DNA of 25,616 bases. Source: a virus (taxonomy: Duplodnaviria; Heunggongvirae; Uroviricota; Caudoviricetes). A program made the translations under genes and the position numbers. The stretch is from IMG/VR virus record IMGVR_UViG_3300029033_000243, positions 1 through 25,616 of that record. One strand, written 5' to 3'. The first letter of the stretch is position 1, and every line of letters starts with the position of its first letter. A model generated the notes under the pieces. That model was not told where the DNA came from and did not search any database. It saw nothing but the letters and a program-made list of their open reading frames with translations. Below, piece after piece: positions 13,439-24,498 of the stretch.

Positions 13439-14014
13439 TTAAGACTCAGCACACAACTCTAAAAAAGAACCTTTATAATAAAAAAGACCAGACTTATCAT
13501 TTAACTCTGTAAATAGCTTACAAGCTCTTTTATGACACTCCAATGCACTGTTTTCATTACGACTAACTATAATTGTTTCTTTCTCCTTATTGTCTGCATC
13601 CAGAAAACTCTTCAATAAGAATTGAATAATGTAATCTTCTTCAGGGAAAGAATACCCAATAAAAATCAGAACATCTGCTTGTCTTAGTTGACTAGATGAT
13701 TTAATAAATGCATTTTTGAAGTATTTATCACTATAATTTTGATCATTAGATGGTAATATTATATTCGGACATGACTTTATATCATTTAATGAGTCGTAAT
13801 CAATTTTAAAGCCATCACCTTCAGCAATAACCTCAAACCCACCATTTAATTTATAGAGTCCAACTCCACCTTTTTTAGGACAAGCGACTTCGTTATTAAT
13901 ATGAATGGGAAAACCACGTAATTGAGTCCTAGCAGGATTGGAGAATTTCAAAACCTTATCAATAACTATATCATAATTTGTAGTTATAATATCCAAAGAT
14001 TTGGAACATTCCAA
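13439..14014 (-). CDS. SIR2-like (NADase-type) effector, C-terminal portion; frame is open upstream to an in-frame TAG at 14132-14134
   Basis: ORF-track piece begins at TTG; carries ITTNYD (nt 13970-13984) and LIFIGYSFPEED (GYS nt 13649-13657) SIR2-type motifs; AT-rich; same frame as the 14132..14527 piece. Confidence 0.6.
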   Translation of the reverse strand: MECSKSLDIITTNYDIVIDKVLKFSNPARTQLRGFPIHINNEVACPKKGGVGLYKLNGGFEVIAEGDGFKIDYDSLNDIKSCPNIILPSNDQNYSDKYFKNAFIKSSSQLRQADVLIFIGYSFPEEDYIIQFLLKSFLDADNKEKETIIVSRNENSALECHKRACKLFTELNDKSGLFYYKGSFLELCAES

Positions 14015-14131
14015 TCCATTAAAAAACCTGATAATATCATCTTTATGTTTTCTTGCAGCACCCTTGCTATCAAGCTTAAATTCACTCGCAGGCAGTAATC
14101 TTACAAATTTATTCTTAATGTAATTCTTGAC

Positions 14132-14527
14132 CTACCGTTCAAAATAGTCCAGAGTCTGTTTATCCAAATGAGATGGTAAAAGACTAGGGTATCTGCGGTA
14201 AACATCAAGATTGTACTTAAAACTCTTAAATACGCCAGCCCTTTCCTTTTCACAAACAGTTTCTGGATGCAGATTCAGATTAAAAGATTCAAATAAAGAG
14301 AAAAATTTAAACTTATCAGAATATAATTCAGCTTCTTCTTTTGACAACGAGAAAACTTGATCACTCAGGGGATATTTTTCATCCCAAGCTTTAGAAAAAC
14401 CAGCACCTAAAAAAACACATATTTTCTTATCGTCTAGCTTCCGATGTAAATCATCGAAGGACTCTATTCCTAGAGAATTACCTTCTTGAGCCACACCATC
14501 ATAGTCAAAGTCTAATTTATCTAACAT
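14132..14527 (-). CDS. SIR2-like effector, N-terminal portion (Rossmann GAGxS motif), ending at an in-frame TAG
   Basis: 131 aa; KICVFLGAGFSKAW (nt 14393-14407) is the SIR2 dinucleotide-binding motif; ATG overlaps the ATPase stop (TAATG), indicating translational coupling. Confidence 0.6.
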   Translation of the reverse strand: MLDKLDFDYDGVAQEGNSLGIESFDDLHRKLDDKKICVFLGAGFSKAWDEKYPLSDQVFSLSKEEAELYSDKFKFFSLFESFNLNLHPETVCEKERAGVFKSFKYNLDVYRRYPSLLPSHLDKQTLDYFER

Positions 14528-15768
14528 TATTTTTCTTTCCCTACCAATCCCAAAAAGGAAGGAAGAACACCAAATTCCCCTCGAAAATACTTAGCCGAAA
14601 CCTTAGCATCTTTCCTAATTGAAAACTTTGATGCATTGATAATATTCGAGGCTTTTTCTTTATCTTTGATAATAATATTTAATTCATCTCTTCTGAAGCA
14701 TTCATCCAATAAAGGAATATTATGAGTAGATAATATAAATTGCATATCATTTTTCTCTAAATGATATGTTAAGATACTTTTAATTAAGGTGGTAGCCAGA
14801 GAATGATGAATAGATGCATCTACTTCATCAACATAAAGCGTAAACCCACAATCAGTTGTCCAAATAACTGCAGCCATGAATGTTAATATATTCATAGTCC
14901 CTTGTGAGAAAAACTCATCCCTCTCACCTGGACCTATGGTTGTAAAACCACCATCAAGATTTTTTATCTTGTAGACAAAGTGATATTTTTTATCACTACC
15001 TACAGGAAGAAAATCGACACCATCAATATGAAGGGGTGCCTTTAAAATAACATCACCATACAAACCTAACAGATTCTTAGCATTATCATTAATGGTTACC
15101 TTCCCATTATCATCTTTAGTCAGTAGTTCTTCAAACTTGGATTCAAAAAACTCCAACCCTTTACCAAAAAATATTTCAGGATTATATGGTAATTGAGATA
15201 CAGCCCAATCTCTAACATTAGTCATTTCTTTGGATTGCAAAGATTTCGCAAATGTTATTACTGCACCAGAATCTTTAATAATTGGTTTTATAAGCGTTTC
15301 ATGCTTTTTGTAAGTTGGTTTTTTAAACTCCAACTCATCTCCATTACGAATAAAAATACAACTTTCTTTTGCTCCTTTCTTCACTTCTCTTGAGTAAAGA
15401 TATTCACTAACAACCTTACCTTCAAAAACAGATATCCCATATCGAAGAAAAGTGTCTTTTTCTTTGTTTACAATAATAACTTCATAAGAGGTCGGACTTA
15501 GTCGATTTTTACTATCGAACATGTACGGTTTATGGAGTTCATTCAATGTGTCACGATGTATAGATCGAGCAAAATCATTTATTGCTCTTATTATTTGAGA
15601 TTTTCCTGCACCATTCCCACCAATAATTGCAGCAAATCGATTAATTCTTAATCCATTGTCTAACAACATAGTATGATCAAGGTGTTCATCACCAGCGGAT
15701 GACACAAAACTTAGAGTCTGCTGGTCTCTAAAGCTCTTATAATTCTCTATCGTGAAGGCAATCAGCAT
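14527..15768 (-). CDS. ABC-type / AAA_21-like ATPase (OLD/PtuA/AriA-like architecture), first gene of the two-gene cargo operon
   Basis: 413 aa; Walker A GGNGAGKS (nt 15598-15621, verified by translation); Walker B/D-loop LYVDEVDASIHH; late STHN motif; N-terminus MLIAFTIENYKSFRD typical of these ATPases; AT-rich. Confidence 0.8.
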   Translation of the reverse strand: MLIAFTIENYKSFRDQQTLSFVSSAGDEHLDHTMLLDNGLRINRFAAIIGGNGAGKSQIIRAINDFARSIHRDTLNELHKPYMFDSKNRLSPTSYEVIIVNKEKDTFLRYGISVFEGKVVSEYLYSREVKKGAKESCIFIRNGDELEFKKPTYKKHETLIKPIIKDSGAVITFAKSLQSKEMTNVRDWAVSQLPYNPEIFFGKGLEFFESKFEELLTKDDNGKVTINDNAKNLLGLYGDVILKAPLHIDGVDFLPVGSDKKYHFVYKIKNLDGGFTTIGPGERDEFFSQGTMNILTFMAAVIWTTDCGFTLYVDEVDASIHHSLATTLIKSILTYHLEKNDMQFILSTHNIPLLDECFRRDELNIIIKDKEKASNIINASKFSIRKDAKVSAKYFRGEFGVLPSFLGLVGKEK

Positions 15769-15912
15769 CTGAAACCCCTAATTTTGTGAAAAAAGTGCAA
15801 AATAGACATGATTAGTGAGTGTAATGCAGACTGAGCTAGGCTGTAAATGAAGATGTGAAGTTATCCTTTAATACTGTTCTTGCTTTCAACCAAATCTCAT
15901 ACTTAGCGCGCG

Positions 15913-15931
15913 CTCGTATCCCCGCCACGCC
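15913..15931 (-). other. putative cos site (19-nt cohesive-end sequence, minus-strand orientation)
   Basis: Reverse complement reads GGCGTGGCGGGGATACGAG; the first 13 nt match the cohesive end I recall for phage 186 (GGCGTGGCGGGGAAAGCAT; P2 has GGCGAGGCGGGGAAAGCAC). Lies downstream of Q, as expected. Confidence 0.5.
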
Positions 15932-15953
15932 TGCCCGCTTTATGCAGTGGTTT

Positions 15954-16054
15954 TCATGCACATGCATGACATGAGCAAAAGCCCGCCAGTTCTGGCGAAT
16001 CTGAGCAAAGACGATCCTCAATCGATCATGCGATTTCATGCAGCATAGTCATGC
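15954..16054. repeat. cluster of TCATGC / CATGCATG short repeats next to cos (possible terminase recognition elements)
   Basis: Read directly: TCATGC at 15954-15959, 16026-16031, 16036-16041 and 16049-16054, plus CATGCATG at 15961-15968. Confidence 0.3.
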
Positions 16055-16310
16055 ACTGTCAAGGAAGTTAAAATCCGTATCTGAATGGCCACTTGAAAAA
16101 CGGATCATACGGGTTTACAAAGATGAATGTTCGCTGTGAACGGGAAGCGGAAGTTAACTTTCAGATAACATAATCCATATGCACGAGAACCTCTAAAATA
16201 GAATGGGACACCTAAGCGGGGTACTTACAACTATTCTTTCCATATTCACAGTTAACACTCTGTTTGGCGTATTTTTATTCAAATAGCAAACACCAATAAA
16301 AGGAGTTTCC

Positions 16311-16646
16311 ATGAACAATATTCCCCCTATACCACAGTTAGGAATTTATGTCTCAAAAATCGATCCCACCCTACGTATCACTGTAACCGATGTTGATATT
16401 GTTGATGGTGAGGATGATTCTCCTGATGATGAATTGTTTTATTTAGTCCACTGGATCGAGGGGGAAGATGAAAGTGATATGACAGCAATGGGATTTGAGC
16501 TAGACCCAGTAGAGTGGCAGGCTTTCGTTGAATCTGAGCAATTAGTGTTTGAGCGTGATCCGTACATGGATTCAATCCCCGAAAATTCAAACTTGGCAAA
16601 GATTCGGGATTTTCTCATGAAGACTAAACAGAATGATCATTCGTAA
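16311..16646 (+). CDS. small very acidic protein of unknown function (111 aa)
   Basis: ATG preceded by AAAGGAG; roughly a quarter of residues are Asp/Glu with few basic residues; lies between cos and the Tum/DinI-like module, where P2 carries tin/old. Confidence 0.55.
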   Translation: MNNIPPIPQLGIYVSKIDPTLRITVTDVDIVDGEDDSPDDELFYLVHWIEGEDESDMTAMGFELDPVEWQAFVESEQLVFERDPYMDSIPENSNLAKIRDFLMKTKQNDHS

Positions 16647-16800
16647 GTGTAAGCATCCATCAGGAAAATGGTTTTGTAAGTGAATCATCAACTTTTAGAG
16701 AGTCTCAGACACTCCCACTTCTGCTTCTGACACAAAGCGGACGATCACTTATCAAAATAACCGCCCACCTTACGCCTTATTTCACTCATTGCCCAAACTA

Positions 16801-16830
16801 GCCCCCATCAGAATGAATCCTCCTGGGGGC
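16801..16830. terminator. hairpin between convergent acidic ORF and DinI-like gene (weak terminator candidate)
   Basis: 7-bp GC-rich stem gccccca / tgggggc with a 16-nt loop; no strong T-tract on either side. Confidence 0.2.
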
Positions 16831-16838
16831 AACGTTTC

Positions 16839-17072
16839 TTAATGCAGCCAGCTGTCGTCCTCCCACACCTTCTGCATAATTTTCATCACTTGTTTTCTTT
16901 CTTCATCCAGTTGCAGTCCGGTTAGTTCCACACCGTTAGAGCTACCTTTGCGAATGCGAATTACCGTTTTGGGATACAGGGGGCGCAGATTGCGGTAAAG
17001 CTCGGATTCAAGGGCGTCCAGGGTAGACTGGCTAATCTTCTGCTCTTTATCGATCATTATTTCAATGCGCAT
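16839..17072 (-). CDS. DinI-family protein, Tum-like antirepressor domain
   Basis: From the internal Met (MRIEIMIDKEQ...LDALESEL...VWEDDSWLH), 77 aa aligns by eye with E. coli DinI (MRIEVTIAK...ETWESADDWFVSE). The ORF-track frame extends upstream to 17144, overlapping the preceding ORF. Confidence 0.7.
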   Translation of the reverse strand: MRIEIMIDKEQKISQSTLDALESELYRNLRPLYPKTVIRIRKGSSNGVELTGLQLDEERKQVMKIMQKVWEDDSWLH

Positions 17073-17082
17073 AAAAGTCACC

Positions 17083-17271
17083 TCAGCTGATGACATCCAT
17101 TGAGCGGTTGTATTCGTGGCTTCTGATTTTTGCCATGAGTTCATCAGTCAATTCAGAAACCCACTGCAGAGCCAGCCCCTTCTCTTCATCACTACACTCA
17201 CTAGCCGCTACAAGCTTAAGAAAAAAATCAATGCGCTGGAGCTTCAAAGACTCCAAAAAATAGTCCTGCAT
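17083..17271 (-). CDS. small ORF (62 aa) preceding the DinI-like domain; possibly the N-terminal part of a Tum-like antirepressor
   Basis: ATG with AGGAGG 4 nt upstream; LexA box about 40-60 nt upstream; its 3' end overlaps the DinI-like frame. Confidence 0.5.
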   Translation of the reverse strand: MQDYFLESLKLQRIDFFLKLVAASECSDEEKGLALQWVSELTDELMAKIRSHEYNRSMDVIS

Positions 17272-17311
17272 CTTTCCTCCTATGACACCAAAACAATACT
17301 GTATACATAAC

Positions 17312-17331
17312 CACTGTTTATATTTACAGTA
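17312..17331 (-). promoter_or_regulatory. LexA (SOS) box upstream of the Tum/DinI-like operon
   Basis: cACTGTttatatttACAGTa; core CTGT-N8-ACAG at 17314-17329, matching the E. coli SOS-box consensus TACTGTATATATATACAGTA at most positions. Confidence 0.6.
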
Positions 17332-17423
17332 TATAATAATCTTACTGATGTAAAACGTTTTTTTACGTTCATCGGCCTGATATGCCTGGTATTATTAAGA
17401 GCACGAATTGTTAACCCGCGTAA

Positions 17424-19844
17424 TTAATACAGGTTCCGCCACTTATCATCTTCCTTCAGACGTTGGTTCCGATAGAAGATACGCAGGCCTGCTCCTGACG
17501 GAATACTGCCGCCGCGAAGGAGCAAATCGACTTCTTTCTCGCTGCCATCAAATCCCCTGGACTTCAGTTCATAGACGAGCTGCTGTCGCTGATGGTCTGT
17601 AATTCGCTGTTTGTAGTCTTTACGCCGTTTCGGTTTCACCTGGCGTAACCTTGCAGCCAGTTCCCGGCGCTCTTTTTTGCTCATACTGTGCAGGTAATCG
17701 TGCAACTCCTTGTCATTCATACGGGTAATATCCGTTCTGGAGTCCCCATCAGCTGATTTGTCTTTCCCTTGTTGGTTCAAATTTTCAGCAAGGGGACAGT
17801 TATTGCCACGAGTCCGAGTCCAAGGGGCGCAAGCGCCCTGGTCGGCTGCCGCCTCCTGAACGTCAACGGCTTTACGAACCATTTTCCACTTCACTGCATG
17901 AGTGCAGATCTTGCCCTCTGCAATGGGTGACCAGATGCCATAAATACGAATACCGTGATCGCCATAGGCGGTCGGCTCTTCGTTGATTTCATAAGCGGTT
18001 CTGATGAGGTGATATTTACGGGGAACCAGTACGCCGCCCTGCTTCATGATATAGGTGGCAAAACAACCAGCATCAGCAGCAGCCAGAATGGCATCAAGGC
18101 GCGGGTTATCCAGTACCGGCGCACCTGCTTTTTTGTCATCCTGCTGCCTTGCCGCCTGACCAGCCAGCAATCGCAGTTCACGGTAAGCCTGACGCCCCGG
18201 AATGCCAAAGAAGCGGAATTGCTGAACACGATGCAGAGACGCCCAGGCATTAACGTATTCAGCGTTATCACGCAGAGTTTTACCCGTTTCCTTGCTGATC
18301 TCGCCAGCCAGACCACGCCCGTCAATATTCTTACTGATATATTTCGCGATGTAGCTTGTCGGCGTTCCTTTGCGCGGATTAATCAGCTCAGACTGAAAGC
18401 GCGGCCCCGTGTTATTGCCCAGCTCCTCGCGGTCTTCACGGATGGCAAAGTTACGCAGTAATGCAGTGATGGCGCGGCGGTCTTTTTTGCGCATAAAACA
18501 CAACAGGTGCCAGTGAACTGTACCGTCATGATGCGGCTCAGCCACCCGCACGCCATACCACCGCAATCCGGCTTTGTGCATTGCCTTACGAAATGCAGCA
18601 AACATGCCGACCAGATAATCACTGCTTTGTCTTACCGTCGCATTTGTCCAGGTCGGGTTGGGCCTGCCGTTATTTAGCGTGGAATGGAAACGTGACGGAC
18701 AGGTGATGGTGTAGAAAACGGCGCAGTCACCGCGCATTTCCGCGATAAGCTCCAGACCTTTAACACAGGCCATCATCTCATTGCGGCGATGCGCAGGGTT
18801 GCTGCTGCTGGCGTTTACCACATCCTCCATGTCCAGCGTGTCGCCGTCTTCGTTCACCAGTTCATGAGAACGGAAAAACTCCAGCGACTTACGGCGCTGC
18901 TCACGTTTATGCATCACGGCTTCATAGCTGACATAGGGAGATGCTTTTTTGCTGACAAGGCAGACAGCACGCAACTGCTCTTCCCGCCATTCGCAACGCA
19001 TCTTCCATAATTTCCGATACCACCAGTCGGCGCACAACATACGCGCCAGCGAACCCGGAATGAGTTCATAGGGCACGGGTTTACGGCGGTTTCTTTTCCG
19101 GCGGAGTTGCTCAAACGCAGGTGGGATGACATCCAGTCGCAGGGTTTCTGCTGCCACCCTTTCCCATGTCTTGCGGATTTCTTCTGGCTTAACGTCATCG
19201 GTGGCATACAAATCGCCACAAGCTGCATCAAGGCACATGCTCATATGCGCAGCTACCAGGGTGGACAGGCGTTTCACCTGATCCTGACTCATTTCAGGCA
19301 GGATCAGCAGGCCGTCCAGCCCTTCATGGCTCGCCATAAAGCGAAAAGAAGTGGATAGCTGACTGTCGCGTACATGCTCCAGCCGTTCCAGACATGGCTT
19401 AATCGTCTCACGCAAATAGCGGGAATAAGCCTTTGGCCTGCCCAGGCTGCTGAAGTATTCAATACGTTGCATCAGCGGCTTGCTGATATGGGAAGGCTGG
19501 GCGTTGACGTCAGCCAGAATGACCATGTCTGGATTAAAACGCTGCTGCTCATGCGCCAGCTTTGCCCGGCTAATGAGCTTATCCTGCTCCATTTCGCGCT
19601 GGACAGGATCACGGGATTCATTAAAGAAATAACGCTCCCAGACCTGCTCACTCAGTGCCTCGCGGCGCAGTTGTTCCTGCTCGTTATCGGCAGCATACAG
19701 AGTGATCAGGTTTGAAAGTGCAGACTCCGGCGCAACTTCCGCCGGGTCCAGATAAGGGTTAATGGCCTTTTTCGGGCCGTTCCATGAAAATGATGCGGCG
19801 GCCTCGTTAAAGCCGCTAGAGTTGCTCATATCGTCATGACTCAT
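17424..19844 (-). CDS. A: replication initiation protein gpA (rolling-circle endonuclease)
   Basis: 806 aa; HUH-type motif [11 protein letters not shown]2/186 gpA-like; start overlaps the Dam stop (ATGA). Confidence 0.85.
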
Positions 19845-23526: not shown

Positions 23527-24498
23527 ATGGACTCTAAAGAACACAAAAAAGAAACAATACAAAACAGCATCACAAAATCAGAGTTTAAAAAATACGTTGA
23601 TTTTATACATGATGATTCTATTCCACTTCCTGAACATGAACGCACATATCTAAAGAACTTGTTGAAAAATGGTGAAATTGAAGAATTCAAGGATCAATAT
23701 AGACGCCATCTCCAAAACTTAGATAGAGTCGGCTTTAGCGACGAAGATATTGAATTACAACTTAACGTGTTAAAAAAAGATAATAATGAATTCAGAAACT
23801 TATTACGTTTTTATACAGCTCGCTTATCTGATTTGCAAGAAAGCAACACCTCATTATCATTAAAAAACAAAGAGTTAGAAAATTTAAACATAGAAAAAGA
23901 ATCTTTACTTGAGCAAACTTTTTCTAGGATAAAAGAGTTAGAGGCTTCAAATAACGAATTAACCAGTCGAGCACATCAAGAGAGAATTGATCAAAAAATT
24001 CCCGAATATGTCAATAGTGTAAAAGATGATTTAGGTGATGATGATGATCACTTTATTTCACTCGCCAAAACATGGGCTATTGCTGGTGCAATAGCCGGTC
24101 TTTCCGCTGTCATTTTTTCGTTCATATCATTATATTTTGTTACTGATTTCATAAATGCTAAAGGATTTGAACTATTTTATCTATTCACCAGAGGCCTGAT
24201 TGGAATTTCCATTTTATCATGGCTTTCTTATATCTGTCTGAGTATCTCCAAAAAGTATACTCATGAGTCCATTCGCAGAAAAGACAGAAGGCATGCCTTA
24301 ATGTTTGGTCAAGTCTTCCTACAAATTTACGGTTCGACTGCGACCAAAGAAGATGCTATTCAGGTATTTAAGGACTGGAACATGTCTGGAGATTCTGCTT
24401 TTTCTGATCAAATGGATTATCCGCCAAGTTTCCAAACGCTATGGTCTACCGCGAAAGAAAAAATCAAACCTTCTCATTCAGAAAAATCCTCCGATTAA
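23527..24498 (+). CDS. AT-rich cargo gene: 323-aa coiled-coil protein with two C-terminal transmembrane helices (candidate superinfection-exclusion/abortive-infection protein)
   Basis: Between repressor and integrase, same strand; heptad-like region (LSDLQESNTSLSLKNKELENLNIEKESLLEQ...); hydrophobic helices WAIAGAIAGLSAVIFSFISLYFV and LIGISILSWLSYICLSI; AT-rich. Confidence 0.65.
   Translation: MDSKEHKKETIQNSITKSEFKKYVDFIHDDSIPLPEHERTYLKNLLKNGEIEEFKDQYRRHLQNLDRVGFSDEDIELQLNVLKKDNNEFRNLLRFYTARLSDLQESNTSLSLKNKELENLNIEKESLLEQTFSRIKELEASNNELTSRAHQERIDQKIPEYVNSVKDDLGDDDDHFISLAKTWAIAGAIAGLSAVIFSFISLYFVTDFINAKGFELFYLFTRGLIGISILSWLSYICLSISKKYTHESIRRKDRRHALMFGQVFLQIYGSTATKEDAIQVFKDWNMSGDSAFSDQMDYPPSFQTLWSTAKEKIKPSHSEKSSD

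Follow-up and report, generated by a model that had tools for sequence, protein, structure and literature searches.

When phage 186 is induced by the SOS response, LexA repression of the p95 promoter is lifted and the Tum protein then sequesters the CI repressor (Murchland et al. 2020, PMC7708051). The second half of Tum resembles DinI (Lemire et al. 2011, PMC3121763). In phages Fels-2 and PSP3, both reported to be SOS-inducible, tum is split in two, and the upstream half of the PSP3 pair is described, through a personal communication, as the antirepressor; Fels-2, which carries such a split tum, is reported to make lexA null mutations lethal (PMC3121763). Here we analysed a locus of this type, tumA–tumB, in a stretch of 25,616 nucleotides (nt) from a tailed virus (IMG/VR record IMGVR_UViG_3300029033_000243, Caudoviricetes), which is called the window below.

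In phage 186, the tum gene stands after gene A, a LexA box lies over the -10 element of its promoter, and a single fused protein of 146 amino acids (aa) combines an antirepressor segment at the N-terminus with a DinI-like one at the C-terminus. There is one SOS box, and orf97 is the next gene in the same operon. The 186 record lists nested tum starts, with an internal Shine-Dalgarno (SD) sequence and a GTG start placed exactly at the DinI-like part, which is the tumB position. In PSP3, a LexA box, tumA (60 aa, annotated as “similar to 5' end 186 tum; UV induction of prophage”) and a 77-aa DinI-like tumB (“similar to dinI and 3' end of 186 tum”) follow gene A; the two genes are in the same frame, with TAG and one codon between them, and the single LexA box is at -40. 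In Fels-2, the gpA-like STM2729 is followed by STM2728, a hypothetical protein, and by STM2726.1, a DinI-family member whose annotation points out a similarity to PSP3 TumB. More distant parallels are dinI-gfoA/gftA of Gifsy-1/2/3 and the dinI-like genes of PY54/N15 with antA/antC, in which a DinI homologue is likewise paired with a small antirepressor under LexA control. These operons put dinI first, in the opposite gene order; they belong to lambdoid or N15-like phages, and neither their antirepressors nor the repressors that these act on are related to those of the tumA–tumB type. In the Yersinia phage PY54 locus that we inspected (L051, 701-1250), the DinI-like ORF56 is directly followed by antA, in the reversed order of the Gifsy prophages.

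We propose, with a probability of about 0.82, that the window carries a two-cistron SOS operon, tumA–tumB, of a Fels-2-like Peduoviridae prophage that works as follows. In an undamaged lysogen, LexA would sit on a double overlapping operator that covers the -10/start region of a p95-like promoter 3' of gene A. After DNA damage, RecA-stimulated self-cleavage of LexA would open the promoter, and TumA and TumB would be translated independently, each from its own ribosome-binding site. TumA would bind the 186-type CI and keep it off its operators, by which the lytic promoter would be derepressed and the prophage induced, while TumB would modulate RecA filaments and SOS signalling in an accessory role that antirepression does not need. 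LexA binding, the interaction between TumA and CI and the role of TumB are presumed here from the literature or by analogy, and the CI encoded in the window is the presumed target of TumA by comparison with 186 Tum/CI biology (PMC3121763, PMC7708051). Such a locus would explain the SOS inducibility of this class of P2-like prophages, unlike P2, as has been known for more than 20 years for 186, PSP3 and Fels-2. The arrangement as such is already known and very common.

Layout and control region of the locus

The operon is located directly 3' of gene A in a P2/186-like genome that, according to Pfam, also encodes CII (PF06892) and a 186-type CI (PF07022 and PF16452); an apl-like open reading frame (ORF), read from sequence alone, adjoins cI, and the synteny around the operon agrees with 186, PSP3 and Fels-2. 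A region of 751 bp is ~97% identical to Fels-2 and to many Peduoviridae members from Klebsiella, Escherichia and Salmonella. The identity to Fels-2 covers promoter, operator and the two genes; the genes stand in the same order, 10 nt apart and offset by +1, and TumA is 97% identical. The homology ends exactly at the tumB stop (16841), after which Fels-2 continues with the orf97 homologue STM2726 and the window with other cargo. The original prediction, an SOS (LexA)-controlled Tum-type module in a P2/186-type backbone, is thus borne out, the locus being homologous to that of 186 and nearly the same as that of Fels-2.

Two separately initiated genes, of the sizes known from split loci (~60-62 aa and 77 aa), follow one predicted LexA-controlled promoter. 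They do not form one 146-aa polypeptide: the tumA stop codon, a 10-nt spacer with an SD sequence and a change of frame lie between the two halves. Because of these two cistrons with their stop, spacer and frame change, the locus is classed as a split tumA/tumB variant and not as a 186-type fused Tum. The 62-aa ORF with a strong SD sequence had been recognised correctly in the original prediction, and AGGAGG or GGAGGG is present upstream of every tumA homologue.

The LexA box of the form CTGT-N8-ACAG, placed by the same prediction at 17314-17329, is found at exactly these positions and is the single match to this core in the window. The bare core is not significant (0.33 matches expected; at least one match in 27 of 100 shuffles); the complete 20-mer is at most three mismatches from the LexA consensus, which none of the 100 shuffles reached. 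Of 44 related loci, 33 have this box 1 in the equivalent place, and most of the others have CTGT-N8-CCAG. It is the positional equivalent of the LexA site annotated at the 186 p95 promoter and, as annotated there, overlaps the putative -10, so that a predicted LexA operator lies over the promoter in the manner of 186-type Tum modules. The -35 hexamer of the window, TTTACA, corresponds to the annotated TTCACA of p95, and one or the other is conserved at this distance across the related loci. For the -10 element, the candidates are TATACT, with a 15-nt spacer, and TACTGT, with a 17-nt spacer, the latter being the hexamer annotated for p95 in 186. These -35 and -10 assignments are putative and follow the analogy with p95.

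A second predicted LexA box, an operator feature absent from the original prediction, shares 1 bp with box 1. Two 16-bp LexA cores that overlap by 1-2 bp make up the geometry of a colicin-type double SOS operator, and the predicted boxes have this geometry. Double overlapping SOS boxes, with two LexA dimers bound, are a hallmark of colicin genes and are linked to very tight repression (PMC2994835). When compared with the operator of ColE1 cea, 34 of 42 positions are identical in the same arrangement, in which the two boxes share one bp and GTGG is the left half of box 2. The cea sequence was checked and has a 100% match in ColE1 NC_001371, directly in front of an ORF that encodes a colicin pore-forming domain. 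The cea operator controls a plasmid-borne toxin gene, not a prophage antirepressor, and the likeness concerns operator design only. In Fels-2, the 20-mer of box 2 is identical to ColE1 box 2, and Fels-2 and the window differ by a few substitutions in this box. The double-box layout is kept in 27 of 45 loci, while 16 of the 45, mostly from Pantoea, Erwinia and Tatumella, have a single box, as do PSP3 and 186. By analogy with the colicin genes, the prophage would probably fire only on strong or prolonged SOS signalling.

Downstream of tumB, a GC-rich hairpin with a fold energy of -24.9 kcal/mol (z = -2.4) is a probable weak terminator and marks where the variable cargo region begins. The sole hit of the consensus promoter/terminator scan was another, small hairpin over the tumA/tumB junction (GTCATC...GGTGAC, 17077-17094, minus strand). 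It spans the tumA stop and the tumB SD sequence, is not conserved in relatives with differing junctions, and could couple the translation of tumB to that of tumA. A search of Rfam gave no match in 16200-17500.

Table 1. Features of the tumA–tumB locus, the repressor gene and the neighbouring cargo in the window
Feature	Coordinates	Strand	Remarks
gpA-like replicase ORF, 806 aa	19844-17424	-	Directly upstream of the SOS operon
Putative -35 hexamer TTTACA of the p95-like SOS promoter	17349..17354	-	Read from sequence, within an AT-rich spacer
Putative -10 region, TATACTGT	17326..17333	-	Overlapped by LexA box 1
Predicted LexA (SOS) box 1, 20-mer TACTGTAAATATAAACAGTG	17312..17331		Core CTGT-N8-ACAG 17314-17329
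Predicted LexA box 2, CAGTGGTTATGTATACAGTA	17297..17316		Core GTGG-N8-ACAG 17299-17314
tumA Shine-Dalgarno sequence AGGAGG	17276..17281	-	Read from sequence
tumA, 62 aa, predicted antirepressor	17083..17271	-	Stop TGA 17085-17083
tumB Shine-Dalgarno sequence GAGGTGA	17078..17084	-	Overlaps the tumA stop TGA
tumB, 77-aa DinI-family protein	16839..17072	-	Begins MRIEIMIDK
GC-rich hairpin GCCCCCA...TGGGGGC	16801..16830	-	9 nt past the tumB stop
186-type CI repressor, 308 aa	22588..23514	+	Tandem helix-turn-helix and CI_C (Pfam)
111-aa ORF, phrog_17127	16311-16646		Convergent, opposite strand to tumB
AbiLi-like AAA_21 ATPase	15768-14527		PADLOC AbiLi 9.6e-54
131-aa ORF	14527-14132		No matches
191-aa SIR2_2 ORF	14014-13439		Matches the C-terminal part of SIR2 models only

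Predicted roles of TumA and TumB

TumB belongs to the DinI family. Its match to Pfam DinI (PF06183) has an E-value of 6.6e-23 and 81.3 bits against a gathering cut-off of 24.2, in agreement with the DinI-family domain starting MRIEIMIDK that had been noticed from the letters. The protein is 41% identical to residues 71-145 of 186 Tum over 75 aa (E = 8e-24), that is, to its C-terminal half, and it matches positions 71-148 of 151 in phrog_189 and aligns over its full length with the E. coli DinI structure 1GHH (2.7e-6). It is 100% identical to Fels-2 STM2726.1 and 78% identical to PSP3 TumB. Because it scores only 42.7 bits against the cut-off of 111 of the NCBIfam equivalog for chromosomal DinI (NF007893), TumB is classed as a phage paralogue and not as an orthologue of host DinI.

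For TumA, the relationship to Tum is found at the level of profiles only. In PHROGs, TumA matches phrog_698 (5.9e-38) and phrog_8554 (1.1e-8), and residues 7-44 of 186 Tum match phrog_8554 (3.3e-12) and phrog_698 (6.7e-6) in the same profile columns as TumA. When a hidden Markov model of 33 TumA sequences was run against 7144 ORFs, five 186-type Tum ORFs ranked right after the family with E-values of 0.03-0.12, and the next, noise match had an E-value of 3.7. An hhalign comparison of TumA with Tum gave P = 5.8e-4, with the single Cys and the motif [IL]AL..[IV][AS]E[IL] in register. Searches of Pfam, NCBIfam, PADLOC and PDB sequences gave no match for TumA. AlphaFold2 models it as a two-helix hairpin (helices 2-23 and 28-61; pLDDT, the model's per-residue confidence, 90), for which Foldseek returned only generic helical hairpins from the PDB, with E-values of at least 1. 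TumA is thus predicted to be an antirepressor, remotely homologous to the N-terminal half of 186 Tum. Many homologues of TumA in the databases are extended N-terminally to 78-109 aa, translating the promoter and the LexA boxes (e.g., ...YTVNINSGY...); these extensions, like the name “levan regulatory protein”, look like annotation artefacts.

The presumed target is an unusual repressor. Pfam finds Phage_CI_repr in two stretches of the window CI (residues ~23-86 and ~126-200) in addition to Phage_CI_C, and the protein is 308 aa long because its helix-turn-helix (HTH) domain is tandemly duplicated, the two copies being 54% identical to each other. A CI usually has ~190-200 aa, but among the best 120 database clusters ~45 are of this long kind (290-330 aa); the CI of Klebsiella phage 4LV2017, for instance, has 313 aa. 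We compared TumA and CI in related loci, using the 40 loci from different species that were assembled, together with Fels-2 and other phages, for the frame question treated below. TumA is 71-98% identical among these loci, and CI only 35-54%. In E. coli 2014C-3307 (L055; 463-1032, 6630-7062), TumA and TumB are 100% identical to those of the window, and CI has 189 aa and is 48% identical, its HTH part being highly similar and its C-terminal domain ~30% identical. If TumA is an antirepressor, the conserved HTH domain of CI is most likely what it recognises, and it may act across immunities. A further step can be offered only tentatively, with the odds somewhat against it: a TumA that is not immunity-specific and recognises the conserved HTH could cross-induce heteroimmune P2-like prophages, and the double SOS box would make this induction late and high in threshold. 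A literature search on TumA/TumB returned nothing relevant, and neither the sharing of TumA among heteroimmune repressors nor a late, high-threshold induction through a double box was found stated in the accessible literature. The double SOS operator and a TumA shared by divergent repressors are therefore possibly unreported details, and they represent small, testable additions to the known picture.

Several observations weigh against the proposed operon and its mechanism. BLASTP detected no pairwise similarity of the 62-aa protein to 186 Tum or to PSP3 TumA, and the latter sits in a different PHROG, phrog_1993. The homology between TumA and Tum consists of moderate profile matches (6.7e-6 in PHROGs; an hhalign probability of only 29%) together with synteny, and the antirepressor role of TumA goes back to the personal communication on PSP3, which is cited second-hand in PMC3121763. 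An identical TumA beside CIs that are 48% identical would be unexpected for a specific repressor binder, unless the HTH is what it targets. In the control region, the consensus scan called no canonical sigma-70 promoter, the reason being a non-canonical -10 or a spacing of 15 nt, and the terminator scan did not call the hairpin downstream of tumB as an intrinsic terminator, because its loop is long and its T tract is poor.

Under a different division of labour, the DinI-like TumB would be the antirepressor and the 62-aa ORF accessory or unrelated. We consider this unlikely, although the 186 record annotates a truncated, DinI-like Tum as modulating prophage SOS induction, and the 62-aa protein, which finds no match in Pfam, NCBIfam or the PDB, has a remote link to Tum. 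TumB appears to be dispensable: 19 of the 40 species loci have tumA and the LexA box without tumB within 1.5 kb, and tumB is truncated or degenerate in four loci. In PSP3, antirepressor activity was assigned to the upstream, non-DinI gene, and deletions of dinI homologues in Gifsy prophages had no significant effect on induction (PMC3121763). In PY54 and the Gifsy phages, moreover, the dinI homologue adjoins a distinct antirepressor gene. The DinI-like antirepressor of the original prediction is hence not upheld, and TumA is retained as the predicted antirepressor.

Reading frames of tumA and tumB

The DinI frame had been described as open upstream of its start and as overlapping the 62-aa ORF by ~60 nt across an A5 run near 17110-17120, from which a frameshift in an ancestral single gene had been considered. 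The frame is indeed open, and an ORF that begins with ATG, 17144-16839, shares 62 nt with the 62-aa ORF, but the genes themselves do not overlap, as the real tumB start, the ATG at 17072, is 10 nt downstream of the tumA stop. The A5 run is located at 17131-17127.

TumA has 62 aa in 35 of the 40 species loci, and its C-terminal stretch past the A5 run, AKIRSHEY.RSMD, is conserved in its own frame. No fusion to DinI was found among the best 120 database homologues of TumA. Codons 38-54 of tumA are the region where the tumB frame of the window happens to be open, and here the nucleotide diversity of 38 distinct tumA sequences is 8.1 at position 3, as compared with 2.6 at position 1 and 1.1 at position 2; only the tumA frame is therefore under selection here. 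In each of the 23 loci that carry tumB, including the window and Fels-2, a spacer of 8-13 nt with a G-rich SD sequence precedes the gene. The frame offset between tumA and tumB in these loci is 0 in six, +1 in eight and +2 in nine, and the tumB frame is open for only 1-6 codons upstream of the ATG in 9 of the 23. Judged by these sequence comparisons, tumA and tumB are separate, independent genes, and no frameshift is present or required. Homologues with two independent conserved genes were the very observation that, in the original prediction, would speak against a split frame, and its alternative of separately expressed domains is the correct one, given the SD sequence and ATG of tumB and the variable offsets.

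It is very improbable that ribosomes slip or shift by +1 at the tumA stop, as a form of programmed recoding, and so yield some ~143-aa TumA-TumB fusion beside the separate proteins. Shifted by +1 at AGC-TGA-G, ribosomes would translate ...VIS-EVTF-MRIEI..., an open frame exists in the window, in Fels-2 and in the loci L004, L024 and L029, and the same-frame junction of PSP3 could be read in a similar light. The frame relation, however, varies from locus to locus as given above, the open stretch upstream of tumB ranges from 1 to 25 codons, and L006 and L011, which have the same +1 offset, contain a stop one codon before the ATG. The window has no slippery heptamer and no prfB-like CUU-UGA context, and the best 120 database matches include no fused homologue.

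The weakest alternative, to which we give almost no weight, is that a mutation or a sequencing error in the A5 run shifted the frame of a single ancestral 146-aa tum, which would make the locus a pseudogene or an assembly artefact. In its favour, the ORFs add up to about the size of Tum, the tumB frame has 25 open codons upstream and overlaps tumA across the A5 run, and one relative from Dryocola has a truly degraded copy that reads into the other frame, but the two-ORF layout recurs in Fels-2, dozens of phage records and 1083 E. coli genomes (at least 80% query coverage), the TumA C-terminus past the run is conserved as protein with its variation on third codon positions, tumB has its own SD sequence and ATG, and the upstream extension of its frame fails to align with 186 Tum. 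The Dryocola sp. BD613 copy (L038, 7001-7240) has a degraded tumA with ATA in place of ATG and a frameshift into an alternative frame (...AKICAHNITAQWIFPV...), without tumB; it shows how a real frameshifted tumA appears.

With two genes as the preferred reading, the fused form calls for comparison. The fused Tums in the phage collection (186, MHG75, EtG, BIS20 and Kp4882-2) are nearly identical to each other, split or tumA-only arrangements are spread across Enterobacterales, and 186 retains an SD sequence and a GTG at the tumB position. For these reasons, the data fit a 186 Tum that is a derived fusion of two modules, which agrees with PMC3121763.

Prevalence and neighbouring genes

Of 5426 complete E. 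coli genomes, 1125 contain the operon. Among them are derivatives of E. coli B and C, and the identity in B/BL21 derivatives and E. coli C is 99.8%. In the E. coli genomes, the Prokaryotic Genome Annotation Pipeline annotates two genes, a “hypothetical protein” and a “DinI-like family protein”. The comparison has some value for annotation: the 62-aa gene, a “hypothetical protein” or wrongly a “levan regulatory protein” in thousands of genomes, should be named a TumA-like antirepressor, and the DinI-like gene should not be taken for the antirepressor.

Whereas tum is followed by an orf97 homologue in 186 and Fels-2, the window has other cargo in its place before the portal gene, and the SOS operon here therefore would consist of tumA and tumB only. 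This variable cargo region, 13439-16830, lies between tumB and the portal gene and contains the four ORFs listed last in Table 1. It is likely an anti-phage defence islet, in which the SIR2_2 ORF may be truncated. Between cI and the integrase gene, a 323-aa ORF (23527-24498, plus strand) has no PADLOC or NCBIfam match, and Klebsiella phage 4LV2017 encodes a hypothetical protein of 349 aa at the matching position.

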